Assembly (NCBI GenBank): GCA_018716505.1
Contig: DVJW01000036.1
Coordinates: 1-56,057 of the forward strand
Direction: 5' to 3'
Length of the DNA stretch: 56,057 nucleotides
Source: Candidatus Faecaligallichristensenella faecipullorum
GTDB taxonomy: Bacteria > Bacillota > Clostridia > Christensenellales > Aristaeellaceae
Shown: piece after piece, positions 4,115 through 43,333 of the stretch
Layout of the letters: every line of letters begins with the position of its first letter
Position numbering within the stretch: position 1 is the first letter of the stretch
Program-made: the position numbers and the translations under genes
Notes under the pieces: model-generated
What the model was told of the DNA's origin: nothing
What the model saw: only the letters and a program-made list of their open reading frames with translations
Databases searched by the model: none

Positions 4115-4327
4115 CAGACATCAGTCACCTTTCGCCTCCATAAGTGCGGGAAATTTTCCGATTTTTTGAAAGAAATTCGCGCGCTGTTTTCAAATTCGTT
4201 TCTTCCTGTATTTGGAGGGAAAGTATCGGGGAAAAATGAGATTTTGTATACAAATGAAGAACTTATGTAACGAAGAAATCCATTGAGGGCCCTGAAGATT
4301 AACTTTGGGACAGCGGCGGCTCAGTGC

Positions 4328-4356
4328 TTTACGCCTGTTGATGAATGTGTTATAAT
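4328..4356 (+). promoter_or_regulatory. Candidate rsmD-coaD promoter
   Basis: TTTACG (4328-4333), 17-nt spacer, TATAAT (4351-4356) with upstream TGT (extended -10). Confidence 0.45.
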
Positions 4357-4395
4357 AATCTACATGTCAAGGAATGCATATCAGGAGACGGGTGT

Positions 4396-4965
4396 ATGCG
4401 CATAATATCCGGAGAGGCCAGGGGAAGAAAGCTGTTTGCCCCCCAGGGACTGAACACCCGGCCCACGGCCGACCGGGTGAAGGAATCGGTGTTTAACATT
4501 TTAGGCCGCCGGGTGGTTGAGGCCCGGGTGTTGGATCTGTTTGCGGGATCCGGAGCGATGGCCCTGGAGTGCATAAGCCGGGGCGCTGACTTTGCGGCGC
4601 TGGTGGATCAGGATCGGGGCGCGGCCGCGGTAATTGAGAAAAATATCGCGCTTTTGCGCTGTGCCGAAAGAACGCTGCTTATCAATATGGATTGGCGCCG
4701 CGCGCTGAAACAGATGCGGGGATACAGGTTTTCGTTGGTCTTCATGGATCCGCCCTACAAAATGGTGGAAAGCTATGATCAGGCCGCCCAGGCGCTCAAA
4801 GAGGATGGGCTGTTGGAGGATGACGCCACGCTGGTCATGGAGCACAGCCGGGAAGTTTCCCTGGAAGACCGGTTGGGCCAGGGTTTTGAAATATTTGATA
4901 AACGGGTTTACGGCGAAAGCGCGGTGAGTTTTGTCAGGCGAACGGAGGAAGAAGATCATGAGTAG
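4396..4965 (+). CDS. rsmD: 16S rRNA (guanine966-N2)-methyltransferase RsmD
   Basis: MRIISGEARGRKLFAPQGLNTRPTADRVKESVFNIL..., SAM motif DLFAGSGAMALE and catalytic DPPY. AGGAGA SD upstream of the internal ATG at 4396. Conserved pairing with coaD. Confidence 0.9.
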   Translation: MRIISGEARGRKLFAPQGLNTRPTADRVKESVFNILGRRVVEARVLDLFAGSGAMALECISRGADFAALVDQDRGAAAVIEKNIALLRCAERTLLINMDWRRALKQMRGYRFSLVFMDPPYKMVESYDQAAQALKEDGLLEDDATLVMEHSREVSLEDRLGQGFEIFDKRVYGESAVSFVRRTEEEDHE

Positions 4966-5437
4966 CTGTATCTTTCCGGGCAGCTTCGATCCGTTGACCG
5001 TGGGCCACCTGGATTTGATTCAGCGTTGCGCCCGCATGTTCGACGGAGTGGTGGTGGCGGTGATGTGCAACCCCGAAAAGCGCAGTGCCTTTAGCCCCGA
5101 GGAGCGGGTGGATATGATTCGCAAATGTGTGCGCGGCCTGAAAAATGTGTCGGTCATCCATTCGGAGGGCTTGACCATAGACGCTGCCCGGCGGGAAGGG
5201 GTTCAGGTCATGGTGCGCGGGGTGCGCAACGAGGTGGATTTCGGCATGGAAGTCCAGTTGGCCACCATAAACCGCCACCTTTCCCAGGGCATGGAAACGT
5301 TGCTCCTGCCCACGCTGCCGCAATATGCCTGGGTGAGCAGTTCCATCGTGCGGGAGGCGGCCCAATACGGCGGCCGCATCGAGGGATTGGTGCCCGGGGA
5401 AATTTTGGAAGATGTGCGCAAACGGTTTGCACGCTGA
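4958..5437 (+). CDS. coaD: Phosphopantetheine adenylyltransferase
   Basis: MSSCIFPGSFDPLTVGHLDLIQR... (the T/HxGH nucleotidyltransferase motif) and ...SSSIVRE. The start overlaps the rsmD stop. Confidence 0.95.
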   Translation: MSSCIFPGSFDPLTVGHLDLIQRCARMFDGVVVAVMCNPEKRSAFSPEERVDMIRKCVRGLKNVSVIHSEGLTIDAARREGVQVMVRGVRNEVDFGMEVQLATINRHLSQGMETLLLPTLPQYAWVSSSIVREAAQYGGRIEGLVPGEILEDVRKRFAR

Positions 5438-5533
5438 ACCTAAGCATAGAGCCATACGTCTAAGCGGCGTCAGGCCGCGTTTCGAAGGGGCCCCGCGCCC
5501 GCTTCGATTCATCAGCTGGAAGGAGAAGAGAGA

Positions 5534-6202
5534 ATGGATACCAGAGATCGGGACAATGCGATGAACTTCGATGAGGCCGAGGCGGGTTATACTGGCCGGG
5601 ATGTGGATGGTCTGCCCCATATGGTGGTGGAAGATTGCGAGGAAATGTATAAACTGCTCGATTTTTTGGAGCAGGAGCTGCAGAACCCGCCCGGACGCCG
5701 GCTGATGGGTCCCAATGTGGACGTGGAGCGCTGCATTGACATTGTGCAAAACATCCGCGAAAACCTGCCTTCGGCCATCCAGAATGCCCAGCGCACCTTG
5801 GATGAGCGCGAGCGCATCCTGCGCAATGCCGAGCGGGCGGCCGCGGATATCAAAAAACAGGGCAGGATTCAGGCCGATGGCGACATTGCCAGCGCCCAGG
5901 CCACCATTGCCGAGGCCAGCAAGCAGGCCCAGAATATCGTGGACGACGCCCAGCGCCAGGCCGACAATATTCTGGCCGAGGCCAAGGAACGGGCGGATGC
6001 CCTGGTGGCCAAGTCTGAAATTTTGCGCCGCGCCGAAACGGAGGCCGATGATATCGTGAACCGCGCCAATGCCGAGGCCAATGAGCGCAGGCTTCAGATT
6101 AACAATTATGTGCGCAATATATTGGACGGCCTGGAGGCTGATCTCACCGACAGCATAAACGCGCTTCAGACCACCCGGAAAAATCTCGGGGTAAACCGCT
6201 GA
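5534..6202 (+). CDS. Coiled-coil protein rich in A/E/R/Q heptads (ATP-synthase-b / V-ATPase-G-like repeats); function unknown
   Basis: GGAAGGAGAAG SD. The 222-aa ORF has long AEAxxRA-type repeats (NAERAAADIKKQ..., AEAKERADALVAKSEILRRAETEADDIV...). Confidence 0.65.
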   Translation: MDTRDRDNAMNFDEAEAGYTGRDVDGLPHMVVEDCEEMYKLLDFLEQELQNPPGRRLMGPNVDVERCIDIVQNIRENLPSAIQNAQRTLDERERILRNAERAAADIKKQGRIQADGDIASAQATIAEASKQAQNIVDDAQRQADNILAEAKERADALVAKSEILRRAETEADDIVNRANAEANERRLQINNYVRNILDGLEADLTDSINALQTTRKNLGVNR

Positions 6203-26576: not shown

Positions 26577-28220
26577 TTGCCGATTACATCGATCGATGGA
26601 GTTATGCTCAAGGAGATGTTCCTTTCGGGGGCCGCCTTGTTGGAGCGCAACCGTCAAAATGTGGACGCCTTAAATGTTTTCCCGGTGCCGGATGGCGACA
26701 CCGGAACCAATATGTCCCAGACCATGAGCGCCGCGGTGCGCGAGCTGAACGCGCGCAGCGCGCCCACGGTGGGCGATGTGGCCAACACCGTGGCCCGGGG
26801 CGCGCTTAAAGGCGCCCGGGGCAATTCGGGCGTTATCCTGAGCCAGATTTTCCGGGGGATTTCCCGGGTGTTGGACGGGGCCGAGGAAATGGATGCCCAG
26901 CTGTTTGCAAAAGCGCTGCGCCAGGGCGCGGATACCGCCTACAAGGCGGTTATGAAGCCCAAGGAGGGCACCATCCTCACTGTGGCCCGGGTAATCGCCG
27001 AGGACCTGGAAAAAGAGGTCTTGAAGACCAATGACCTGATGGAGCTCATGGAGTTTGTGCTCAAAAGCGGCGACGCGATTTTAAAGAAGACCCCGGAGAT
27101 GCTTCCGGTGCTCAAACAGGCGGGCGTGGTGGATTCGGGCGGAAAAGGGCTGATGGTGCTCTATGCCGGCTTTAACGCGGCGCTGCATGGCGAACCCATA
27201 GAGGATATGGAGCTGAACCAGGCCGCGGGCATGACCCTTCCGGGGGAATTTGTGGATGACCATGAGGCGCTGGAGGAAATCACTTTTGCCTATTGCACCG
27301 AGTTTATCGTCTCCCATCCCAAGCCCGAGGTTAGGGACAGCGACGTGGCCCGGTTGCGCAAGCGATTGGAGCGCATTGGCGACTGCGTGCTGGTGATCGG
27401 CGATTTGGAGGTTATCAAGGTTCATGTGCACACCAATGATCCGGGCAAGGCGCTGCAAATGGCGCTGGAACTGGGGGAATTGGACGCCATAAAGATCGAC
27501 AACATGCTGGAGGAGCATCGCGAGCGCCAGGCCAAGATGGAGGCCCAGGCCGCCGCGCAGCCCAAGAAATTCGGCATGGTGGCCGTGGCCCTGGGCGACG
27601 GCCTGGTGGAAATCTTAAAGGATTTGCAGGTGGACAAGGTGGTGGATGGCGGCCAAACCATGAACCCCAGCATAGAGGACCTGCTGGAGGCCATTGAGGC
27701 GGTCAATTCCAACGAAATCTTTGTGCTGCCCAATAACTCCAACATCATCCTGGCCGCCCAACAGGCCGCCGAACTCACCGAAAAGACGGTGCATGTGCTG
27801 CCCACCAAGTCGGTGCCCATGGGCATCGCGGCCGCGGTGGCCTTCCAGGAGGAGCTGAGCGGCGAGGAAAACGAACGCCAGATGGATATCGCGGCCTCCA
27901 ATATGCATACCGGATCGGTGACCTACGCGGTTCGGGATACCAATTTCGACGGCAAGGACATTCACCAAGGCGATATCATGGGGTTGATCGACAACAAGAT
28001 CAGCACTTTGGGCCATGAAGCCGATGAGGTTTCCATGGAAATCCTGGATCAAATGGTAACCGACGACAGTGGGTTGATTACCATTTTCTACGGCGAAGAG
28101 GTGGCCGAAGAAGATGCGCGGGCCCTGTACGACCGGGTGGTGGAAAAATACGAGCTTTGCGATGTGGAAATCCATCGGGGCGGCCAGCCGCTGTATTATT
28201 ATCTGCTGGCCGTGGAATAA
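26577..28220 (+). CDS. yloV: DAK2-domain fusion protein YloV
   Basis: TTG start; ...LNVFPVPDGDTGTNM...ARGNSGVILSQ... (Dak2 phosphatase-domain signature) plus a C-terminal DegV-like half. Confidence 0.9.
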   Translation: MPITSIDGVMLKEMFLSGAALLERNRQNVDALNVFPVPDGDTGTNMSQTMSAAVRELNARSAPTVGDVANTVARGALKGARGNSGVILSQIFRGISRVLDGAEEMDAQLFAKALRQGADTAYKAVMKPKEGTILTVARVIAEDLEKEVLKTNDLMELMEFVLKSGDAILKKTPEMLPVLKQAGVVDSGGKGLMVLYAGFNAALHGEPIEDMELNQAAGMTLPGEFVDDHEALEEITFAYCTEFIVSHPKPEVRDSDVARLRKRLERIGDCVLVIGDLEVIKVHVHTNDPGKALQMALELGELDAIKIDNMLEEHRERQAKMEAQAAAQPKKFGMVAVALGDGLVEILKDLQVDKVVDGGQTMNPSIEDLLEAIEAVNSNEIFVLPNNSNIILAAQQAAELTEKTVHVLPTKSVPMGIAAAVAFQEELSGEENERQMDIAASNMHTGSVTYAVRDTNFDGKDIHQGDIMGLIDNKISTLGHEADEVSMEILDQMVTDDSGLITIFYGEEVAEEDARALYDRVVEKYELCDVEIHRGGQPLYYYLLAVE

Positions 28221-28234
28221 AAATTGGAAAACAA

Positions 28235-28262
28235 GGCCCGTCTGCCGGATTGGCGGACGGGC
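28235..28262 (+). repeat. Copy A of a 28-bp direct repeat; it forms an 11-bp hairpin but has no U-tract
   Basis: GGCCCGTCTGCCGGATTGGCGGACGGGC is identical to 28488-28515. Stem GCCCGTCTGCC/GGCGGACGGGC (one G-U pair), loop GGATT. Confidence 0.95.
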
Positions 28263-28487
28263 TCAGCGTGTCGAGAAAATCGACACGCTGTCAGGAAAAT
28301 GAATGCTTCATTTTCCTGAGTTGCATCATTTTCCTGTCACCTTCGGTGGCGGCCGGAAAATGATAGAGGAAGCGGCCACCTGGGCCGCTCCTCGAACCGG
28401 CGAAGCCGGTTCTGCGGATTGAATATGAAGGGGCTGTGGCCCCTTCATGCATCCCCAGAGTAATAAATTGGGCTTTTTGACAGTTTG

Positions 28488-28515
28488 GGCCCGTCTGCCG
28501 GATTGGCGGACGGGC
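28488..28515 (+). repeat. Copy B of the 28-bp direct repeat
   Basis: Identical 28-mer to 28235-28262, here followed by TTTTT. Confidence 0.95.
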
Positions 28516-28520
28516 TTTTT
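28489..28520 (+). terminator. Rho-independent-terminator-like hairpin plus U5, ending 23 nt before the recG ATG
   Basis: 11-bp GC-rich stem, 5-nt loop, TTTTT (28516-28520). The recG SD GGGAGG is at 28532-28537. Confidence 0.6.
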
Positions 28521-28543
28521 CGGAACAAGGCGGGAGGTAAAGA

Positions 28544-30544
28544 ATGGATATTGCGCTGAATAAGCTGCCCGGGATCGGGCCCGCGCGGCTGAAGGCGCTG
28601 GAAGACGCGGGGATCTTTTCGGTGCGCCAGTTGGTGGAATACCTGCCTCGCTCCTATCGCAACCTGTCGGACAGGCGTCCGCTGGCCAGCCTCAAGGTGG
28701 GGGATGAGGCCGCGGTCAGCGTGCGGGTGTCCGGCGGGGTAAACGAACACAGGAGCGGGCGGCTGCTGATTACCAAAGCCTATGTGGAGGACGATTCCGA
28801 CCGCATGGCCGTCGTCTGGTACAATCAGCCTTGGCTAAAGCGTCAGCTGAGTCCGGGGAAACCGCTTTTGCTGTATGGGCGGGTGGAGGCCAAGTATGGC
28901 TCCATCGCCCTGGTGTGCCCGGTTTTTGAACAGGGGGACGGACTGGTTCCGGTGTATAAACCCATTCCGGGGATGAGCAACAAGTTGCTGCGCCAATGTA
29001 TATCGGACGCGCTCAGCGTCTGCGAAGGCCAATGGCCGGATGAGTTGCCCGAATCCATCCGCATGAAATACCGCCTTTGCGAGCGCAATTATGCCATGCT
29101 CAACGCCCATAATCCCATCAGTCTCGAGGCGTTGGAGGCGGCCAGGCGGCGGATATCCTTTGAAGAGCTGTTGTTGTATCAGGTTTCCCTTTGGCTGCTG
29201 CGGGGCAGTCATGAAACCGGTGTTTGCATTGAGGCCTCGGCGGAAGAGGCCGATGCCTATTGGGCCAGCCTGGGCTTTGAGCCCACCCGGGCCCAGCGGC
29301 GGGTGTTGGAAGAGATTCAAAGGGATATGGCCGAGAGCGCGCCCATGGCCCGGCTGGTCCAAGGCGACGTGGGCTGCGGCAAGACGGCCATCGCCTTTGG
29401 CGCGCTGTATCTCTGCGCGCTGCATGGCTGGCAGGGCGCGCTGATGGCCCCCACCGAGATTCTGGCCGGGCAGCATCTGGAAACCGCCCAAAAGGTGCTG
29501 GAGCCCCTGGGCATTCGATGTGGATTGCTCACCGGCAGCTTGAGCGCCAAGCAGCGCAAGGAGGCCCGGGAGCAAATCGCCAGCGGGGAGTGGCAGGTGG
29601 TCATCGGCACCCATGCCCTGATTTCCGAGGGCGTGGAGTACAAAAACCTGGGGTTGGTCATCACCGATGAGCAGCACCGCTTTGGGGTCAAACAGCGCAC
29701 CAAGTTGGGGGCCAAGGGCCAGGGGCCCAATGTGTTGGTGATGTCGGCCACCCCCATCCCGCGCACCCTTTCGCTGATCCTGTACGGCGATCTGGACATC
29801 TCCATTGTGGACGAGCTGCCCCCGGGGCGAACCCCGGTGCGCACCAGCATTGTGCCCGAGCGCAAGCGGGCGGATATGTACGGCTTTTTGCGCCGGGAGG
29901 TGGAAGCCGGGCGCCAGGTGTATATCGTCTGTCCGCTGGTGGAGGAATCCGAAGCCCTGGAGGCCCAGTCGGCCCAGCAGCTCTATGAGCGCCTCAGGGA
30001 TCACGAATTCAAGGATATTGAGGTGGCGCTGGTGCATGGGAAGATGCGGCCCCAGGATAAGGACGACGTGTTGAACCGGTTTCACGCGGGCCAAATCAAG
30101 GTGCTCATCTCCACCACCGTGATCGAGGTGGGCATCAATGTGCCCAACGCCAGCGTGATGGTCATCGAAAACGCCGAGCGCTTTGGCTTGGCCCAGCTGC
30201 ATCAGCTGCGTGGACGGGTGGGCCGGGGCAGCCAGGTTTCCTGGTGCTTTTTGATGGCCGAGCCCAATGAGCGGTTGAAGCTCATGACCCAGACCAACGA
30301 CGGCTTTTTGGTGGCGCAAAAGGATTTGGAGCTGCGCGGGCCGGGCGAGATCTTCGGCGAGCGCCAGAGCGGACTGGCCGCACCCACGGCCGGGGCTTTG
30401 CTGGCCGATACCGCCATGCTCAAGGAGACCCACGACGCGGCGCGCTTGCTCATGAAAGATGCCGGAAGTCCGGACAGCCAGACGGTCATTCGCCTGGCCA
30501 AACAGGTGTTTGAGCGCAGGTTCCAGGAAGTTGCGCTGAACTAA
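28544..30544 (+). CDS. recG: ATP-dependent DNA helicase RecG
   Basis: Wedge domain followed by MARLVQGDVGCGKTAIA, ITDEQHRFGV, MSATPIPRTL and QLHQLRGRVGRG. Confidence 0.95.
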   Translation: MDIALNKLPGIGPARLKALEDAGIFSVRQLVEYLPRSYRNLSDRRPLASLKVGDEAAVSVRVSGGVNEHRSGRLLITKAYVEDDSDRMAVVWYNQPWLKRQLSPGKPLLLYGRVEAKYGSIALVCPVFEQGDGLVPVYKPIPGMSNKLLRQCISDALSVCEGQWPDELPESIRMKYRLCERNYAMLNAHNPISLEALEAARRRISFEELLLYQVSLWLLRGSHETGVCIEASAEEADAYWASLGFEPTRAQRRVLEEIQRDMAESAPMARLVQGDVGCGKTAIAFGALYLCALHGWQGALMAPTEILAGQHLETAQKVLEPLGIRCGLLTGSLSAKQRKEAREQIASGEWQVVIGTHALISEGVEYKNLGLVITDEQHRFGVKQRTKLGAKGQGPNVLVMSATPIPRTLSLILYGDLDISIVDELPPGRTPVRTSIVPERKRADMYGFLRREVEAGRQVYIVCPLVEESEALEAQSAQQLYERLRDHEFKDIEVALVHGKMRPQDKDDVLNRFHAGQIKVLISTTVIEVGINVPNASVMVIENAERFGLAQLHQLRGRVGRGSQVSWCFLMAEPNERLKLMTQTNDGFLVAQKDLELRGPGEIFGERQSGLAAPTAGALLADTAMLKETHDAARLLMKDAGSPDSQTVIRLAKQVFERRFQEVALN

Positions 30545-42207: not shown

Positions 42208-42216
42208 AGATAAAGC

Positions 42217-42245
42217 GGCCCGGAACGCGGAAGGCGTTCCGGGCC
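42217..42245. terminator. Bidirectional hairpin between convergent operons
   Basis: Perfect 12-bp stem GGCCCGGAACGC / GCGTTCCGGGCC with a 5-nt loop. Weak U-tracts. Confidence 0.55.
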
Positions 42246-42258
42246 GATTGCCCCTGAA

Positions 42259-42951
42259 TCAATAGAAATAAGAGAACACAGTGGCCGCCAGCACGGTCAT
42301 GAGCCCGGCCACCGCAATGGACAGGCTGCTCATGGCCCCTTCGATGCGGCCCATTTCCATGGCCTTGGTGGTGCCGATGGCATGGGAGGCGGTGCCGATG
42401 GCCAGGCCCCGGGCGATTTTATCCTCAATATGGAACAGCTTCAGCACCCGCTCGGCGATGATATTGCCCAGAATTCCGGTCAAAATGATGGCGGCCACGG
42501 CGATGGTGGTGATGCCGCCCAGTTCATCGGAAACGCCCATGCCGATGGCCGTGGTAATGGATTTGGGCAGCAAGGTCACATATTGCTCATGGCTCAGGCC
42601 AAACAGCACGCTTAACAGCCATATGCTGCCCAGACAGGAAAGCACCCCACAGGCCACCCCGGCCAGCACCGCGACGGCGTGCTTTTTTAGCAGGCTGATC
42701 TGTTCATACAGCGGGATGGCCAGGCAGACCGTGGCCGGAGTCAAGAGATACGTCAGGTATTGAGCCCCCTGATTAAAGGTTTCATAATCGATGTCCAACA
42801 CGAGGAGCAGCGCCATAATCAGCACCACCGCGATCAAAAGCGGGTTGAAGATGGAGAGCTTGAACCGCTTCCTGCACCAGACCCCGATGAGGTAGCAGCC
42901 CACGCTGAGCACCATGCCAAAGTAGGTTGCGTTAAGAAGAAATTCGTTCAT
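42259..42951 (-). CDS. lrgB: LrgB/CidB-family membrane protein
   Basis: ...YLLTPATVCLAIPLY...SITTAIGMGVS...GTASHAIGT... signature. Confidence 0.9.
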   Translation of the reverse strand: MNEFLLNATYFGMVLSVGCYLIGVWCRKRFKLSIFNPLLIAVVLIMALLLVLDIDYETFNQGAQYLTYLLTPATVCLAIPLYEQISLLKKHAVAVLAGVACGVLSCLGSIWLLSVLFGLSHEQYVTLLPKSITTAIGMGVSDELGGITTIAVAAIILTGILGNIIAERVLKLFHIEDKIARGLAIGTASHAIGTTKAMEMGRIEGAMSSLSIAVAGLMTVLAATVFSYFY

Positions 42952-43333
42952 TGACCTTTTCTCCTTCGATTTTTTCCGGAGCGCGGCTTTGACGGCGGCG
43001 CACCAAAGCCTGGGCCGTGAGACCGGTGGCGCCCATGGTGAGGAGGGTGGTCAGGATCAATATGACCACCAGTGGAAGCAGCATGGCCTGGAGCGCTGGA
43101 AGGCTTTCCATCAGCCCCACCGAGGGCCCGATGAACATCAGCGGCATGATCTCAATCAAAAAGTCCGCCGCGGTCTTGACCTGATGGAGTTTAACCACCC
43201 CGGTCATCAGCAAAATCAGCATCAATACCAGGCCGTATATGCTGGCCGGTACGGGAAACGGAAGCAGGAGGCTTAGAAGCTCCCCGGCAAAGGAAACGCC
43301 CGCGATAATCAGAAATTGCCCAATGAGTCGCAT
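42932..43333 (-). CDS. lrgA: LrgA/CidA holin-like protein
   Basis: MRLIGQFLIIAGVSFAGELLS..LPFPVPASIYGLVLMLILL... The 3' end overlaps the lrgB start. Confidence 0.85.
   Translation of the reverse strand: MRLIGQFLIIAGVSFAGELLSLLLPFPVPASIYGLVLMLILLMTGVVKLHQVKTAADFLIEIMPLMFIGPSVGLMESLPALQAMLLPLVVILILTTLLTMGATGLTAQALVRRRQSRAPEKIEGEKVNERISS

Follow-up and report, generated by a model that had tools for sequence, protein, structure and literature searches.

A hairpin block between yloV and recG as a probable miniature element of IS1182-type, hairpin-targeting insertion sequences

The 56,057-nt contig analyzed here (DVJW01000036.1, Candidatus Faecaligallichristensenella faecipullorum; hereafter the window) carries an unusually dense run of hairpins between yloV and recG. 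Comparison with related sequences indicated, at a probability of about 0.9, that this block is a miniature element (MITE) of an IS1182-type, hairpin-targeting insertion sequence (IS), flanked by a 29-nt duplication of the whole yloV terminator hairpin. The yloV terminator is the target of the insertion. The family is putatively mobilized in trans by IS1182-family DDE transposases that choose hairpins or palindromes; this IS1182-type clade is common in gut Clostridia and their phages. An initial annotation had proposed three readings. The block could be an ncRNA or UTR element with a defined structure, a miniature element that had entered the yloV terminator and duplicated the hairpin there, or a REP/BIME-like cluster. 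The second reading was supported by exact sites without the insert, by inverted repeats at the ends, by dozens of copies at other loci and by an autonomous relative that encodes a transposase. A sequence oddity is explained in ordinary terms, and a candidate novel ncRNA is removed.

Filled and empty forms of the yloV–recG spacer

The yloV–recG spacer occupies positions 28221–28543 (323 nt). The features of the region are listed below.

26577–28220, plus strand: yloV/FakA-like DAK2 gene (Pfam FakA-like_C, Dak2, FakA-like_M)
28235–28263, plus strand: target-site duplication copy A, the single copy in empty sites; hairpin at 28236–28262 with an 11-bp stem (28236–28246 with 28252–28262) including one G–T pair
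28264–28487, no strand assigned: whole probable miniature element, 224 nt, no credible ORF
28264–28290, no strand assigned: TIR hairpin (hairpin 2), 11 bp, perfect; the outward terminal inverted repeat CAGCGTGTCGA paired with an inward copy, TCGACACGCTG
28291–28319, no strand assigned: hairpin 3, 13-bp perfect stem, loop TGC; hairpins of different sequence at the same position in other copies
28325–28364, no strand assigned: hairpin 4; outer stem ATCATTTTCC/GGAAAATGAT conserved, inner stem variable
28366–28393, no strand assigned: hairpin 5; 4 of 6 pairs of helix 7 compensatory
28394–28412, no strand assigned: hairpin 6, 8 bp, perfect, GAACCGGC-GAA-GCCGGTTC; 3 of 6 pairs compensatory
28413–28461, no strand assigned: most conserved core, made of TGCGGATTGAAT, hairpin 7 (28425–28448, 10 bp, perfect) and GCATCCCCAGAGT; invariant columns in a 12-copy alignment
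28474–28487, no strand assigned: right terminal inverted repeat TTTTTGACAGTTTG
28488–28520, plus strand: target-site duplication copy B (hairpin at 28489–28515) and the original T tract, TTTTT at 28516–28520
28544–30544, plus strand: recG (Pfam RecG_wedge, DEAD, Helicase_C)

All eight hairpins of the initial annotation were found in their places. Its direct repeat was also found as two identical copies 253 nt apart, but the true length is 29 nt rather than 28 (28235–28263 and 28488–28516, 100% identity). Each repeat copy is an 11-bp-stem hairpin, and six further hairpins lie between the two. No third copy of the repeat was present in the 56-kb window with up to three mismatches allowed. The long-range pairing between copies A and B is a by-product of the duplication. 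A second GGGCTTTTT (28470–28478), earlier taken as a trace of rearrangement, overlaps the right terminal inverted repeat of the element. As annotated, the block has no plausible ORF; only palindrome-generated ORFs of at most 53 aa lie inside it.

Four of the 13 distinct perfect hairpins (stem ≥8 bp) of the 56-kb window fall within 185 nt of this spacer. Folded as RNA, the 323 nt reached −178.1 kcal/mol, versus −114 ± 4.9 kcal/mol for dinucleotide shuffles (z = −13.0); the z-score of the minus strand was −11.8. A promoter/terminator scan returned nothing useful and missed copy B, and the spacer had no blastn match in plasmid and phage collections.

The block is short and non-coding, carries terminal inverted repeats and is bounded by a target duplication for which an empty site exists, as is typical of MITEs. 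Its left end is CAGCGTGTCGAGAAAA, and its right end, read as the reverse complement, is CAAACTGTCAAAAAG; the terminal inverted repeat consensus of the family is CAGNNTGTCAAAAAA. At one end of every family member stands the TIR-hairpin feature CAGNNTGTC(A/G)A...T(T/C)GACANNCTG. The right-end consensus of the family is TTTTT(T/C)GACAG(T/C)CTG, and the tip of the window copy is mutated from CTG to TTG; therefore, to judge from this tip, the window copy may be immobile. Copy A of the target hairpin is cut off from the T tract and is followed by the CAG end of the element (CAGCG...). Copy B is still an intact terminator, 23 nt upstream of the recG start and at the original distance from recG.

We compared contigs encoding YloV and RecG proteins identical or near-identical to those of the window. 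In a sister lineage whose YloV is 94% identical, the spacer was 74–75 nt long in six contigs (L009–L014; JGI, ENA and Logan), with a single hairpin followed by TTTTTCGG, including TTTTT. The spacer is thus not conserved among close relatives, contrary to its first description. Among conspecific contigs, L015/L025 (three SNPs) and L017 contained the insert, and L026 was empty, with the same YloV protein as the filled L025. The 75-nt spacer of L026 equals the filled spacer of L015/L025 minus 253 nt, that is, minus the 224-nt block and one repeat copy. Compared with the window spacer minus 253 nt, its sole difference was the short variant of its lineage just past the yloV stop. Because the empty sites carry one hairpin and lack the 253 nt, the 29-nt repeat arose by duplication of a yloV terminator that was already there.

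Two upstream haplotypes, AAATTGG... and AAATCGGAAAACCAAAC..., were both seen filled, and one was also seen empty. The simplest account of the empty conspecific allele is therefore that the insert was precisely lost between the 29-nt repeats; independent gain is a possible alternative.

Some further observations concern the same locus. The spacer's TAATAAATTGG near the right end was considered as a relic of a duplicated yloV 3' end, and this was rejected; the motif belongs to the element in L199 and L202. In L017 (ERZ28574921, 1044–2677), yloV was called as two ORFs of 301 and 238 aa, reflecting either a frameshift or stop, or an assembly error. The conspecific contig L018 (ERZ1478606 k87_306275, 1–65) enters the yloV–recG element through a different left part, CGCCGGGTACGCTCGGCGAATTTTCAATTCGCCG..., which matches larger element variants with extra hairpin modules inside hairpin 4 (L183 and L193). 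Either this allele is real or the contig is a chimera of two copies.

The wider family, its targets and its transposase

A relative with a 73% identical YloV (L034–L036) also has a hairpin-rich region downstream of yloV. Its insert and that of the window both start with CAGNNTGTC(A/G)A(A/G)AAA and end with an inverted copy, and each lies between two copies of a hairpin, whose sequence is not the same at the two sites. Ends of the type CAGNNTGTCAAAAAA delimit inserts in L034/L036, L042 and L047, with a different duplicated hairpin each time. Each element has an extra, inward-facing copy of the terminal repeat at one end, forming the perfect TIR hairpin.

This TIR hairpin was used for scanning. 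Among viral contigs, three true members were found; two of them, L042 and L047, are complete elements with duplicated terminator hairpins and the T tract on the distal copy only. In one-genome-per-species contigs the scan gave at least 119 stretches, overwhelmingly from gut Clostridia MAGs. Hosts among the matches listed were Oscillospiraceae, Faecousia, Christensenellales-like bacteria and unnamed Clostridiales, and several genomes had at least 2–4 of the listed matches each. At least 47 full TIR hairpins were present, and at least 14–16 elements of about 170–370 nt were delimited by duplicated adjacent sequence. In the fully read examples, the duplication was the entire local palindrome, 25–38 nt long and different at each site; across the delimited copies overall, the duplicated flank at hairpin targets was the whole palindrome, about 21–46 nt. 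By interior sequence, at least four other subfamilies occur among the matches listed.

In CABQNH010000023.1 (L121, 1778–2363), two identical 293-nt elements stand in tandem with the middle target hairpin in common, which suggests repeated insertion into the same hairpin. The 73% relative L034 also contains, in a second intergenic region, a 102-nt segment repeated at 97% identity (1348–1449 and 1972–2073), each copy holding the hairpin GATTTCCAGAATT(T/C)TCTGGAAATC. This is another repeat family, with no CAG..TGTC ends. The family-carrying phage contig L042 has a GP20-b RNA match at 1122–1179 (Rfam RF03003, 52 bits, gathering threshold 36.2).

Copies of the window's own subfamily were collected by running the most conserved core of the window element as a search pattern on metagenome contigs. 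The scan recovered 43 stretches with 36 distinct right flanks. The closest copies (L199, L180/L185, L189 and L200) are 87–91% identical to the window element and have, like it, the TGTCGA end variant and the right end GCATCCCCAGAGTAATAAATTAGGTTTTTTGACAGCCTG; two copies from one rabbit-gut MAG (L119 and L101) are 77% identical. A strong hairpin (−17 kcal/mol or stronger) adjoins 22 of the 36 flanks, versus 106 of 1500 random positions on the same contigs (Fisher p = 4e-16). This energy-based criterion replaced a test for perfect stems only, which was too strict. Duplications of the subfamily at hairpins ranged from about 21 to about 46 nt, and those at non-palindromic targets were 8–9 nt (L199 and L119). 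That the duplication length follows the palindrome and is 8–9 nt elsewhere supports structure-defined attack points. The orientation relative to the T tract of the target was 11 against 3, by a noisy measure that is wrong for the window itself.

A subfamily copy in L192 (LHCFI01400__coassemble_12618) is inserted directly beside TGTCAGGAAAATGAATGCTTCATTTTCC, a hairpin 3 that belongs to a second copy. Hairpins of the element can thus be targets themselves, giving nested insertions.

The window itself contains one copy only of the 224-nt element. L207 is 97.9% identical to window positions 42252–43140 over 889 nt, and another element copy adjoins there, its far end truncated and joined to a gene absent from the window. 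Therefore, the species group has at least two polymorphic sites. At 42216–42246, between convergent ORFs, the window has an unoccupied perfect hairpin with a 13-bp stem, CGGCCCGGAACGC-GGAAG-GCGTTCCGGGCCG. In L207 (1880–2978), the copy adjoins sequence 5 nt downstream of the position of this hairpin, and a pfk-like gene stands in place of the hairpin and its upstream gene, indicating a rearrangement at an element end.

Logan contigs of the species (k = 31) end at 28309 and resume at 28440. The nearest bases specific to this copy are 28279, in the loop of the TIR hairpin, and 28470, and each break is exactly 30 nt away from one of them. Such breaks are to be expected if 28280–28469 recurs in the same samples. 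An inversion or a microhomology deletion was considered for the breaks and rejected; the k = 31 repeat-boundary arithmetic fits exactly instead. Together with the 97.9% identical relative, the assembly-graph breaks suggest that the window's genome may have a further copy.

The link to a transposase came from an autonomous relative. JAFTVV010000012.1 (L050) contains at 4209–5961 a 1753-nt element with the family ends and a duplicated 37-nt palindrome at its flanks. Its 474-aa ORF matched the NCBIfam IS1182-family transposase model NF033551 with 379.7 bits (cut-off 270) and contains the Pfam domains DUF772, DDE_Tnp_1_6 and DDE_Tnp_1. Five relatives of this transposase were found in viral contigs (L210–L214), with ends of the type CAGNNTGTC(A/G)AAAAA adjoining terminator-like hairpins. 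In L211 and L213, whose transposases are 48–50% identical, both ends were visible and hairpins of 22–23 nt were duplicated; in L210, L212 and L214, a terminator hairpin adjoins the one readable end. The right-end form of the window element also terminates L050, L211, L212 and L213.

No transposase was found in the 56-kb window, and tblastn of the L050 transposase against 1.3 Mb of collected loci gave no further copy. Among the elements found, none was autonomous with the interior of the window subfamily, so its link to the transposase rests on common ends and target behavior. The end pair expected of its IS1182-family partner is CAGCGTGTCGA/GACAGCCTG.

The layout of L050 suggests a possible route from IS to MITE. 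This IS has two left-type and two right-type ends, and its first 244 nt, from the left end to the internal TIR hairpin, are by themselves a subfamily-A MITE. On this layout, MITEs could arise simply by use of the internal right end of a full-length IS. In L213 (IMGVR_UViG_3300029713_000150), the duplicated target hairpin reads GGTTCGCGC-TTT-GCGCGAACC in one copy and GGTTCGCGC-AAA-GCGCGAACC in the other, so that the loops are reverse complements of each other. This is either a post-insertion loop flip in one palindrome or a clue to the joining geometry.

Interior structure and alternative explanations

Twelve element copies were aligned (A1), and a consensus structure was computed with RNAalifold. 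It has 69 pairs, 22 of them with compensatory double changes. When partners were slid by 1–3 columns, compensatory pairs fell to 1–7 and paired cells to 38–55%, versus 95.9% in the true register; shuffled alignments gave 11.7 ± 2.2 compensatory pairs, and none of 500 shuffles reached the observed value. Hairpins 3, 5 and 6 and the inner stem of hairpin 4 are swapped among copies for hairpins of different sequence at the same positions (hairpin 6, for example, for GCGGCGTACATGCCGC or GGGGCGG..CCGCCCC), and some copies (L183, L193 and L018) have extra hairpin modules inside hairpin 4. Nearly invariant are TGCGGATTGAA, hairpin 7, which is enclosed by a GGAT/ATCC stem, and GCATCCCC. The internal stems covary, but neither strand has a consistent folding advantage (over 16 copies, the difference averaged −1 kcal/mol and had mixed signs), so the conservation is not a specific pointer to RNA.

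The strong covariation of the internal stems is not explained by MITE identity alone. Selection on DNA secondary structure, or self-correction of palindromes by template switching, may possibly account for it. A stronger view is that the five-hairpin interior is a functional structured nucleic acid acting in cis with the hairpin-seeking transposase. The invariant single-stranded motifs TGCGGATTGAA and GCATCCCCAGAGT and the pairing-preserving changes in the stems could be read in this way, but we consider it unlikely. The interior might then readily form cruciforms that recruit the enzyme or position it, or further copies might use it as a landing pad; alternatively, it might act as an RNA that arises by read-through from the host gene. 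If such a function were true, the transposon would depend for its mobility on the secondary structure of DNA or RNA, at the donor as well as at the target. In subfamily B (L047, L053 and L113), unlike the window's subfamily, one strand folds 5–20 kcal/mol better, and by the layout of L050 it would be the strand sense to the transposase. This predicted bias hints at an RNA-level structure in subfamily B.

Some of the data speak for a host-encoded structured ncRNA or 3'-UTR element of the yloV–recG operon, whose fold would be selected for RNA function. The fold z-score of −13, the compensatory changes in 22 of 69 pairs and the excess of paired cells over slid alignments agree with it. Of the three SNPs that separate L015 from the window, two preserve plus-strand pairing through G–U, which also fits. 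Read-through from yloV is also plausible, because copy A has no T tract. Yet the block is missing from the sister lineage and from one conspecific contig, occurs at 36 unrelated flanks, has related family members in phage contigs, and is bounded by terminal inverted repeats and target duplications. Neither strand is favored consistently in folding. An Rfam search, another check named in the initial annotation, gave zero matches at gathering thresholds for the window, the spacer or the related elements; in a permissive search, the best score on the window was 18.7 bits, versus thresholds of 58–95. Although the stems covary, strain-variable presence, unrelated loci and the Rfam result made an ncRNA or UTR element improbable as the primary identity.

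The two remaining explanations were judged more improbable still. A REP/BIME-like cluster, in which a RAYT-type enzyme would have spread every hairpin through the genome as a palindrome of its own, would account for the dense run of extragenic palindromes, and repeated hairpins do occur in related genomes, such as GCGATTCCC..GGGAATCGC twice in L034. Those, however, represent one duplicated target hairpin. Single hairpins of the block do not turn up again in the 56-kb window, the 224-nt unit recurs whole at other loci, and the associated enzyme is a DDE IS1182-family transposase, not a Y1 RAYT, so this third proposal of the initial annotation is very improbable. For a transposase, a direct repeat of 29 nt is long, this one is located at the 3' end of a gene, and an exact "excised" form exists in L026; these traits would suit the remnant of an element integrated site-specifically by a tyrosine or serine recombinase, with the repeats as attL and attR cores. 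But the repeat differs in sequence at every other insertion and coincides with the local palindrome, which argues against a site-specific recombinase, since it would need one conserved core. The termini are inverted repeats (CAG...CTG), and the enzyme that full-length copies encode is a DDE transposase, not a recombinase. We regard an integration remnant as hardly credible, and a MITE of the IS1182-type family remains the preferred reading.

Host effect and known systems

For the MITE, we infer the following cruciform-foot chemistry. The insertion point would be the foot of the yloV intrinsic-terminator hairpin. The two transposon 3' ends would each be joined to one foot of the palindrome, on opposite strands, and the palindrome would probably be extruded as a cruciform at the time. 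Gap repair would then copy the whole 29-nt hairpin to each side.

The transcriptional consequences were inferred from the same arrangement. Copy A has no T tract and therefore should terminate poorly. Transcription of yloV would run through the element to copy B and TTTTT, and the yloV 3' end is expected to be 253 nt longer, very structured and carrying the element. Copy B keeps the T tract; transcripts therefore probably still terminate before recG, and the insertion would be nearly neutral. Insertion into a terminator with regeneration of an intact terminator should spare the flanking genes, a "safe landing".

The family offers natural whole-hairpin target duplications of about 21–46 nt in many sequences, made by an IS1182-type clade: three full-length elements, at least 14–16 delimited members and several copies of the window subfamily. 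The family provides ready substrates for experiments on how a DDE transposase chooses targets by structure. In practice, the family breaks short-read assemblies of gut Clostridia at intergenic hairpins, and genome scans may mistake it for riboswitch-like or sRNA-like structure.

REP/BIME sequences resemble the block as clustered extragenic palindromes near gene 3' ends. They differ in that here there is no REP consensus, all hairpins are different and form one moving unit with inverted-repeat ends, and the linked enzyme is a DDE transposase, not a RAYT. Bacterial MITEs such as Correia elements, RUP and ERIC also resemble it: they are small, have no ORF, carry terminal inverted repeats, duplicate their target, and occur in many intergenic copies mobilized in trans, which is putative for the window element. 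The usual duplication of bacterial MITEs is 2–10 bp and of fixed length, whereas here its length is set by the target palindrome, at about 21–46 nt.

[quoted passage not shown] On that description, its duplication outcome is the same as that of the window element; it differs in its IS30 transposase family, its different 27-bp ends and its autonomy.

Also among the closest known systems are IS1272 and TnSha1 of the IS1182 family. To our knowledge, IS1272 is the only IS1182 member studied experimentally. The targets of IS1272/TnSha1 are terminator hairpins without sequence consensus, and IS1272L and TnSha1 have three inverted repeats (PMC4923244, PMC5678879). Both papers also cite Siguier et al. 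2015 for some IS1182 members targeting palindromes. The likeness lies in the transposase family (L050 matches NF033551), in hairpin targets that are mostly intrinsic terminators, and in the extra internal copies of the terminal repeat in IS1272L/TnSha1, whose counterpart here is the TIR hairpin. Unlike these staphylococcal elements, the window element is non-autonomous, a derivative of 224 nt whose multi-hairpin interior is conserved, and the hosts are gut Clostridia and their phages. IS1272 deletes all or part of the stem-loop without target duplication (PMC4923244, PMC5678879); the hairpin is lost there, whereas here it is present on both sides at 100% identity. This is the outcome of pathway b in Fig. 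13 of PMC5678879, in which attack at the 5' feet of an extruded cruciform duplicates the whole stem-loop, an outcome predicted, not observed, in the cruciform-foot model for IS1272.
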